This document shows, one piece after another, positions 8,349 to 9,051 of a stretch of DNA of 43,597 nucleotides (within the stretch, counting starts at the first letter, position 1; every line of letters begins with the position of its first letter). The stretch is from a virus (taxonomy: Duplodnaviria > Heunggongvirae > Uroviricota > Caudoviricetes). The stretch is from positions 1 through 43,597 of the IMG/VR virus record IMGVR_UViG_2778261529_000002; one strand, written 5' to 3'. The translations under genes were made by a program, and so were the position numbers. Below the pieces are notes generated by a model. It had not been told where the DNA came from and did no database searches. It saw nothing but the letters and a program-made list of their open reading frames with translations.

Positions 8349-8495
8349 AGAAGATTTCCAATAATCAGAACAAGTCGGCTCCTGTTTAGTTACGAGCGAC
8401 ATTGCTCCGTGTATTCACTCGTTGGAATGAATACACAGTGCAGTGTTTATTAGTATGCCTGTCTTTTAACCACATCAGGCTCGGTGGTTCTCGTG

Positions 8496-8540
8496 TACCC
8501 CTACAGCGAGAAAAATAGTAAAATCCTCTTACCCCTACAG
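8496..8540 (+). repeat. Two 11-bp direct repeats TACCCCTACAG (8496-8506, 8530-8540) upstream of the zinc-ribbon gene
   Basis: Exact repeats 34 bp apart, 17-61 nt upstream of ATG 8557. Confidence 0.4.
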
Positions 8541-8556
8541 TAAGAGAGTGATTTAT

Positions 8557-9051
8557 ATGTCTGATGAAAAAGGAATAATAAGTAGGATTACAGATGCAGT
8601 TTCTGGTGCCGGAGGTGCTCTGATGAGTGCTGTTGGCGCAGTAAAGGAAATCCAGAAAATGCAAATAGACTACTCAGTAAAAGAAAAAACATACGAACTT
8701 GTCGATAAGCTCATGGATGCCCAACAGCAGCAAATGTCACTTAATGAGCTTTTGATGATTTCTAAGGACAAGATTATTGAGCTTGAAGAAAAGATAAATC
8801 GAGCCTCTAAGTGGGAAGAGGAAAAGAAAAACTATGAGATGTATACACCTACTGTTGCTACGGTGGTTTATCGTCTCAAAAAATCGGCAAATACCGGTCA
8901 GCCAATGCACTATCTTTGCGCTCAATGCTATGAATCTTCTGTGAAATCCATACTTCAATACGAAGGATTTGCACCACCTTCTAACCATAGGATGAGATGC
9001 CATAGGTGTAACGCCTCCTATCTGTTCCCTAAATCTGCATTTTCTAAATAA
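8557..9051 (+). CDS. Hypothetical protein (164 aa): Gly/Ala-rich N-terminal segment, coiled-coil middle, C-terminal CxxC..CxxC zinc-ribbon-like motif; convergent with N
   Basis: Only rightward gene in the leftward early operon; AT-rich; 3-prime end overlaps N stop by 8 nt. Confidence 0.6.

Follow-up and report, generated by a model that had tools for sequence, protein, structure and literature searches.

A probable rip1 abortive-infection gene in the sieB slot of a lambdoid prophage or phage, and the conserved cassette upstream of it

Introduction

The closest described relative of the gene treated here is rip1. The work of Patel et al. on Rip1 (Nature 651:1060, 2026) is summarised in a review (PMC13434031), and the account below follows what is said in that summary. 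Rip1, encoded by prophages, has no toxicity of its own. [quoted passage not shown] Cryo-EM places 12 Rip1 subunits around an 11-mer terminase ring; the N-terminal part of the protein is an amphipathic helix and the C-terminal half touches the ring. The complex releases dye from liposomes, makes holes in cells and lyses the infected cell prematurely. Homologues are widespread in Proteobacteria, mainly in prophages (PMC13434031). A conference report agrees with this mechanism, and a separate paper cites Rip1 as a small-terminase sensor. A literature search under the phage name HK446 found no Rip1 source.

The second point of reference is positional. The rightward gene of lambda whose end coincides exactly with the stop codon of N is sieB (J02459, 34482-35036), and in P22 the slot equivalent to that of rip1 holds sieB/esc.

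The DNA analysed here, called the window, is a stretch of 43,597 nucleotides of a lambdoid prophage or phage, in which integrase, cI/cro, N, terminase and portal are present. A blind reading of the sequence, the initial annotation, had singled out the open reading frame (ORF) at 8557-9051 as the odd gene in the early-left operon, and the gene that it picked proves to be one already published and structurally solved. On the sequence evidence given below, this ORF is very probably (about 0.92) rip1, a one-gene defence of the abortive-infection type on a lambdoid prophage, with the mechanism published for the HK446 protein. On the regulatory side, a single conserved upstream cassette serves a variety of cargo genes, unrelated to one another, in this slot.

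Identity of the protein and its family

The product of the ORF is 163/164 identical to the Rip1 ("ring interacting pore 1") of PDB entry 9OOX (phmmer, 9oox_L, E = 1.4e-105), the sole difference being Y97 in the window and H97 in the solved protein. Entry 9OOX, a cryo-EM structure released on 2026-02-04, contains 12 chains of the 164-aa Rip1 together with the small terminase of phage T6. A profile built from 54 family members matches the Rip1 chain of the same entry in a PDB search (E = 2e-51). The AF2 model (pLDDT 69.8) has helices at residues 7-90 and a beta domain at residues 93-158, and Foldseek aligns it with 9oox_M at E = 2.4e-17, 99% identity and a TM of 0.75 normalised by target length. 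Over positions 8300-9100 the DNA shares 99.8% identity with phage HK446, whose record lists the ORF as gp37, a "hypothetical protein". Since the protein is one residue away from the published, structurally solved HK446 Rip1, the gene is already known. The initial annotation had recognised no family and had proposed remote homology search and structure prediction as checks. Both lead to 9OOX, and the absence of a family does not hold: the protein is Rip1, belongs to phrog_1244 (function unknown; E = 4e-53 against PHROGs) and is a relative of HkaP of HK620 (27% identity).

The architecture read from the sequence at the outset, with a Gly/Ala-rich N-terminus, a coiled-coil-like middle and a CxxC..CxxC pair, is present. 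The Gly/Ala-rich stretch comprises residues 14-29; an N-terminal amphipathic helix (mean hydrophobicity 0.34 and hydrophobic moment 0.42 over residues 7-24) is followed by long helices that reach about residue 90. The C-terminal beta domain holds both CxxC pairs, C121/C124 and C148/C151. The four cysteines are invariant in 54/54 diverse homologues, and the signature conserved in these 54 members is W..E..RY.L...Y.LK...EP.H.LC..CY....KSILQ...C..C. The beta domain (AF2 pLDDT 80-88, invariant cysteines) may be a zinc ribbon; Pfam zinc-ribbon models score below threshold on it (E = 0.087). Scans of the window protein against Pfam, NCBIfam and PADLOC 2.0 gave nothing above threshold, and the 54 family members produced scattered coiled-coil and zinc-ribbon matches in Pfam, each in 1-2 members.

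A word-indexed search found 29 close relatives, from Escherichia, Citrobacter, Edwardsiella, Pantoea, Providencia, Serratia and Proteus. An exhaustive profile search enlarged the family to 2,975 cluster representatives at E <= 1e-3, or 1,397 at E <= 1e-10, nearly all of which are 150-175 aa long and aligned over the full length. The family size and the prophage context fit the published picture of Rip1. At 99% identity or higher, rip1 is intact over its 495 bp in 96/5,426 complete E. coli genomes, with many copies 100% identical to the window. The E. coli copies are always chromosomal and usually adjoin N. Among the records listed every one calls the product a "hypothetical protein", and with no Pfam, NCBIfam or PADLOC 2.0 model this amounts to an annotation gap.

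Organization of the locus

The gene, its neighbour N and the structures on their left are as follows.

8557-9051, plus strand: rip1 coding sequence, 164 aa and stop (one-residue difference from PDB 9OOX Rip1; phrog_1244; Foldseek; HK446 DNA match)
8542-8548, plus strand: Shine-Dalgarno-like AAGAGAG, 8 nt ahead of the rip1 ATG (sequence reading)
9044-9367, minus strand: antiterminator gene N, convergent with rip1 (Pfam N36, E = 9.5e-25; phrog_271)
8319-8348, minus strand: intrinsic terminator, counterpart of tL2A (terminator scan; about 98% identical to HK620 DNA, annotated tL2A there)
8399-8446, no strand assigned: long imperfect hairpin with its core at 8409-8436 (lambda-like segment beside tL2a)

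As read from the window sequence, rip1 begins with ATG at 8557 and ends with TAA at 9049-9051. An alternative, longer start is the GTG at 8548; the solved HK446 protein has 164 aa and begins MSDEKG. Purine-rich blocks comparable to AAGAGAG precede the start codon in related loci. The stop codon of N occupies 9044-9046, so that rip1 and N overlap by 8 nt at their stop codons. The rightward orientation, the length and this overlap, all given in the initial annotation, check out. Its statement that the early-left genes run leftward except for this one is true for ORFs of at least 110 aa, among which rip1 is the sole plus-strand ORF between 2103 and 10705. The gene has no co-oriented partner and both flanking genes are on the opposite strand, which makes it a single-gene layout. 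Further to the right are a 434-type cI (10073-10705, minus strand) and cro (about 10812-11024, plus strand); the early operon runs leftward, N is lambda-type, and 434-type operators together with a lambda-type boxB lie at about 9478-9600. The gene was rightly called AT-rich: its G+C content is 39.6% versus 49% for the whole window. Such AT-richness is typical of accessory genes ("morons").

An in-frame internal ATG, that of Met35 (8659), has AGGA 10 nt upstream (window 8645-8661). A product begun there would be without the Gly/Ala-rich N-terminal helix and might, by a weak analogy, correspond to Esc from P22 sieB. Met35 is kept only in the closer rip1 relatives; others have Leu.

Comparison of rip1 with lambda SieB by BLASTP detected no similarity (best E 9.4). 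Without sequence similarity to SieB, rip1 is a non-homologous replacement in the sieB slot, and its match to sieB in slot, orientation and upstream cassette is one of positional analogy, not of family membership. The initial annotation had asked whether related imm434/lambda-like phages have a different or empty insert here; lambda and P22 have the unrelated sieB. Homologues in Pantoea (62%) and Proteus (45%) prophages keep the position, and their orientation is opposite to the early operon; the Pantoea gene is convergent with an N-like gene and, at one Proteus locus, the homologue is convergent with an unannotated 89-aa gene.

The left part of the locus is assembled from two lambda-like segments. 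Positions 8320 to about 8452 correspond to lambda 33925 to about 34057, which includes the tL2a hairpin and the long inverted repeat, and positions 8456-8540 correspond to the region just upstream of lambda sieB. These two segments adjoin in the window and are separated by ral in lambda. The ral gene is absent from the window arrangement beside tL2A. Immediately past tL2A, in the place of lambda ea10, is a minus-strand ORF of 82 aa (8057-8305) that matches phrog_14587, "anti-restriction protein" (E = 5e-48).

The terminator at 8319-8348 consists, on the minus strand, of a stem (8348-8327) of 8 pairs, 5 of them G-C, followed by T8; leftward transcripts that have crossed rip1 reach no strong terminator before this one. 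The terminator itself had been spotted from the sequence and stands; the name tL1 given to it does not, as the near-identical HK620 DNA is annotated tL2A. A similar correction applies to the 9-bp inverted repeat GTGTATTCA-N10-TGAATACAC at 8409-8436. Its location is right, and it forms the core of a hairpin (8399-8446) of -24.9 kcal/mol (z = -6.3; 0/200 shuffles fold as well) that is identical in lambda (about 34004-34051) and HK620. It had been counted among the upstream elements of the gene. In lambda this hairpin adjoins tL2a, and ral lies between the repeat and the sieB promoter; the repeat therefore belongs to the pL-operon segment and not to the control region of rip1. No U-tract follows the hairpin on either strand.

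The exposure of the gene to antisense transcription from pL, which had been proposed, follows from the layout of the operators, boxB and N. A generic scan found no consensus-type leftward promoter in 8000-9700. In the layout of operators, boxB and N, N-modified pL transcripts would have to cross rip1 and its promoter in antisense and go at least as far as tL2A.

In the slot of lambda rexAB, directly downstream of cI, the window has a minus-strand ORF (9672-10148) that matches phrog_2651 (function unknown, E = 1e-58) and carries a hydrophobic signal-like segment; its HK446 counterpart is gp39. It is probably another lysogen-expressed accessory gene.

The upstream cassette

Between the pL-operon segment and the Shine-Dalgarno-like block, the following elements are found.

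8456-8490, plus strand: invariant upstream module TGCCTGTCTTTTAACCACATCAGGCTCGGTGGTTC of the sieB-type promoter cassette (near-identical in related loci)
8488-8512, plus strand: palindrome TTCTCGT / GCGAGAA around repeat copy 1 (arms co-vary between lineages)
8496-8506, plus strand: first copy of the direct repeat, TACCCCTACAG (overlap with the -35 side of the stretch homologous to the annotated P22 P-sieB)
8519-8524, plus strand: -10-like hexamer TAAAAT (alignments; coincides in position with the 3' end of P sieB as annotated in P22)
8530-8540, plus strand: direct repeat copy 2, TACCCCTACAG, at about +2 to +12 for a transcription start about 7 nt past the -10 (repeat search)

The P22 sieB promoter drives a prophage-expressed exclusion gene. 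In the P22-pbi record, P sieB is annotated at L004 1539-1569, a region that aligns with window 8494-8524; the 85 bp upstream of rip1 are homologous to this annotated promoter. Near-identical copies of the module TGCCTGTCTTTTAACCACATCAGGCTCGGTGGTTC precede sieB in lambda and P22 and Rip1-like genes in HK620, vB_EcoM-611R5 and the Proteus and Pantoea prophages. The -10-like hexamer is TAAACT in P22 and TATAAT or TATATT in other lineages. Owing to its poor -35, the sieB-type promoter of rip1 escaped a generic sigma-70 scan. The two exact 11-bp direct repeats reported in the initial annotation are present, and TACCCCTACAG occurs in the window at 8496 and 8530 only, on either strand; in shuffled sequence a repeat of at least 9 nt at such spacing appeared in 0.17% of trials.

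The possibility that the cassette is tL1, or the terminator of a sas-like RNA, was considered and rejected: no U-tract follows any hairpin of the cassette on either strand. An Rfam scan of 8200-9700 gave no match with E < 0.25; scores were far below the gathering thresholds and none fell on the cassette.

Viral contigs were scanned with the invariant 28-nt module CTTTTAACCACRTCAGGCNNGGTGGTTC, which returned at least 120 loci; cargo and repeats were counted over the 130 usable loci among the matches listed (L001-L131). Among these, the first gene after the cassette encodes SieB at 60 loci, a Rip1-family protein at 36 and something else at 34. The latter 34, among the matches listed, fall into at least nine other small-protein families (61-97 aa) or are unassigned. 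Two copies of ACCCCTACAG, 34 nt apart, are found upstream of sieB in lambda, P22, HK140 and Lambda_2E9, upstream of hkaP in HK620 and upstream of the Rip1-like genes of vB_EcoM-611R5 and a Pantoea prophage; in the Proteus loci, copy 2 differs by one base. Among the matches listed, the spacing is 34 nt in 80/80 loci with two copies of ACCCCTACA, and it is always 33-34 nt across versions of the repeat.

The repeat motif, 9-14 nt long, is lineage-specific, and copies 1 and 2 of a locus agree with each other. There are at least eight such matched versions: (T)ACCCCTACAG, TTCCACAGTCAA, TTTCCACAGTCAAA, TCCCCAACAAC, TCCCCAACGA, CCCCAATGCAA, CCCCAACATAA and CCCCCACAA. Hybrids with mismatched copies are rare; one of them (L054) combines copy 1 of one version with copy 2 and the cargo of another. 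The arms of the palindrome change together, as TTCTCGT/GCGAGAA, TTCTTGC/GCAAGAA, TTCCTT/AAGGAA, TTCTTA/TAAGAA, TTCCTGTT/AACAAGAA, TTCCTGTC/GACAAGAA and TTCCTGCT/AGCAAGGA. The matching of the copies within a locus and the co-changing arms argue for function. RNAalifold applied to six cassette sequences gave two small stems with no compensatory changes. Over 57 cassette versions the palindrome arms co-vary, which a palindromic protein site fits equally well; the MAFFT alignment of the versions places the stems out of register, and a hairpin around repeat copy 2 does not form consistently among them. The cassette could act either as DNA, a pair of sites for a factor, or as RNA, through hairpin loops of the sense and antisense transcripts. 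A literature search on the repeat motif returned unrelated primer matches only, and the co-varying repeats are possibly new.

Cargo proteins of 61-97 aa, encoded by the first ORF after the cassette, occupy the sieB/rip1 slot at L013, L025, L012, L071, L116, L015, L031 and L088; examples begin MARYIVRVELRGADSEDY..., MSDVVIDPKENPELAAQQ... and MSIKVISDDNPVKRVAFD.... These small proteins are candidate prophage-expressed accessory or defence genes. At L022, L027 and L112 no obvious cargo ORF follows: the homology ends inside repeat copy 2, past its ACCCC, and gives way to CCCCCTTATTTTGTCAGGGGG. This suggests that copy 2 is a junction at which the slot recombines or is deleted.

Proposed mode of action and self-immunity

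If the protein of the window works as its HK446 counterpart, a superinfecting phage would make ring-shaped oligomeric late proteins, and the C-terminal half of Rip1 would bind the outside of such a ring, the small terminase in E. coli phages or the portal in Pseudomonas phages. Twelve Rip1 molecules would gather around the 11-mer ring and their N-terminal amphipathic helices would form a pore in the inner membrane, so that the cell would die before the progeny mature. Expression in the lysogen, which the initial annotation had thought likely, is predicted from the homology to the P22 sieB promoter region, and this supports the central reading of that annotation: rip1 would be transcribed rightward from the sieB-type promoter. 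During the lytic growth of the prophage itself, N-antiterminated pL transcription would run antisense through rip1 and its weak promoter and may lower rip1 expression.

The small terminase of the window (19086-19637, plus strand) is related to that of phage SF6 (PDB 3zqp, E = 2.9e-11), and a PDB search with a maximum E of 1 gave no match to the T6 small-terminase chain of 9OOX; the portal gene is at 21262-22728. The lack of a match to the T6 chain, the known E. coli trigger of HK446 Rip1, is relevant to how the prophage may keep from setting off its own Rip1.

A more specific role of the cassette can be proposed, tentatively and with more doubt than confidence. The element of about 85 bp might be a portable switch, which couples the cargo of the sieB slot to lysogeny and silences or reprogrammes it when pL antisense transcription starts, in the manner of P22 sas. 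The matched motifs at about -34 and about +2, flanking the -10, would then be recognition elements for a factor or for a sense-antisense loop-loop contact. Such a switch would shield the prophage from its own abortive-infection effector and would explain the safe carriage of suicide effectors by prophages. The other cargo families behind the cassette would become candidate new defence genes, and the cassette itself a simple DNA handle for finding them.

Alternative interpretations

Given its slot, its orientation and its promoter cassette, which are those of sieB in lambda and P22, and given that the HK620 record calls hkaP a "putative superinfection exclusion protein", the gene might encode a SieB-like exclusion protein that acts by the poorly defined SieB mechanism and not by a ring-templated pore. 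The sequence comparison with lambda SieB (best BLASTP E 9.4) speaks against this, as does the lack of a strongly hydrophobic, transmembrane-like segment (the maximum Kyte-Doolittle mean over 19 residues is 1.28), and a protein that differs by one residue has a structure in complex with small terminase and a published pore mechanism. A SieB-like function is accordingly very improbable. The one substitution relative to the characterised Rip1 also leaves a small chance that the Y97 allele is inactive or altered in specificity and persists through linkage to N and the cassette. This too is improbable, because natural homologues with all invariant residues in place have Y, H, F, C or I at position 97, and the 495-bp sequence is intact at 99% identity or higher in the 96/5,426 complete E. 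coli genomes mentioned above.

The convergence of rip1 on N with an 8-nt overlap, where leftward and rightward transcription are bound to collide, could be taken to mean that the ORF is incidental and that the locus is a spacer or antisense target modulating N or pL expression. The invariant Cys and the Trp/Tyr motifs across thousands of homologues, the solved structure, and the unrelated protein-coding cargo that fills the slot in other phages reduce the likelihood of this to almost nothing; protein-level conservation and the published structure refute it in practice.

Comparison with known systems

SieB and Rip1 are both prophage-expressed abortive or exclusion functions. The SieB loci of lambda and P22 resemble that of the window in having a rightward gene between ral/tL2 and N that ends at the N stop and is preceded by the cassette with both ACCCCTACAG copies. 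The SieB sequence, however, is unrelated to Rip1, and in P22 the gene has a further, in-frame product, the inhibitor Esc, and is under the control of sas, an antisense RNA of 105 nt.

The nearest relative is Rip1 of HK446 (gp37), which shares 163/164 residues, 99.8% of the DNA including the flanks, and both neighbours, N and the anti-restriction gene beyond tL2A; it differs in having H97 in place of Y97. The two phages are different mosaics, the window having recombination genes of the Rad52/SSB type (not Erf) and a different head module. HkaP of HK620 and HK630 is likewise 164 aa long and has the same slot, orientation and helix-plus-CxxC...CxxC plan, with a cassette about 98% identical up to the ATG, whereas its protein identity to the window Rip1 is 27%. 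Its annotation in HK620 as an exclusion protein was made on position; a literature search on hkaP found no functional study, only a biosensor paper that uses intergenic regions as insertion sites.

The founding member of the family, Rip1 of a Pseudomonas aeruginosa prophage, shares with the window protein the family name and the mechanism, as given in the review summary (PMC13434031). There, rip1 has the small terminase gene on one side and the large terminase gene on the other, and the escapes are in the portal (PMC13434031), while in the window rip1 is in the early-left region. TerI and Avs1-3 are similar to Rip1 in that they sense conserved packaging-machine proteins of the invader. The Avs proteins are large STAND NTPases that have separate effector domains and sense the large terminase; Rip1, according to the same summary (PMC13434031), does both the sensing and the killing with 164 residues, and its assembly is templated by the phage ring.
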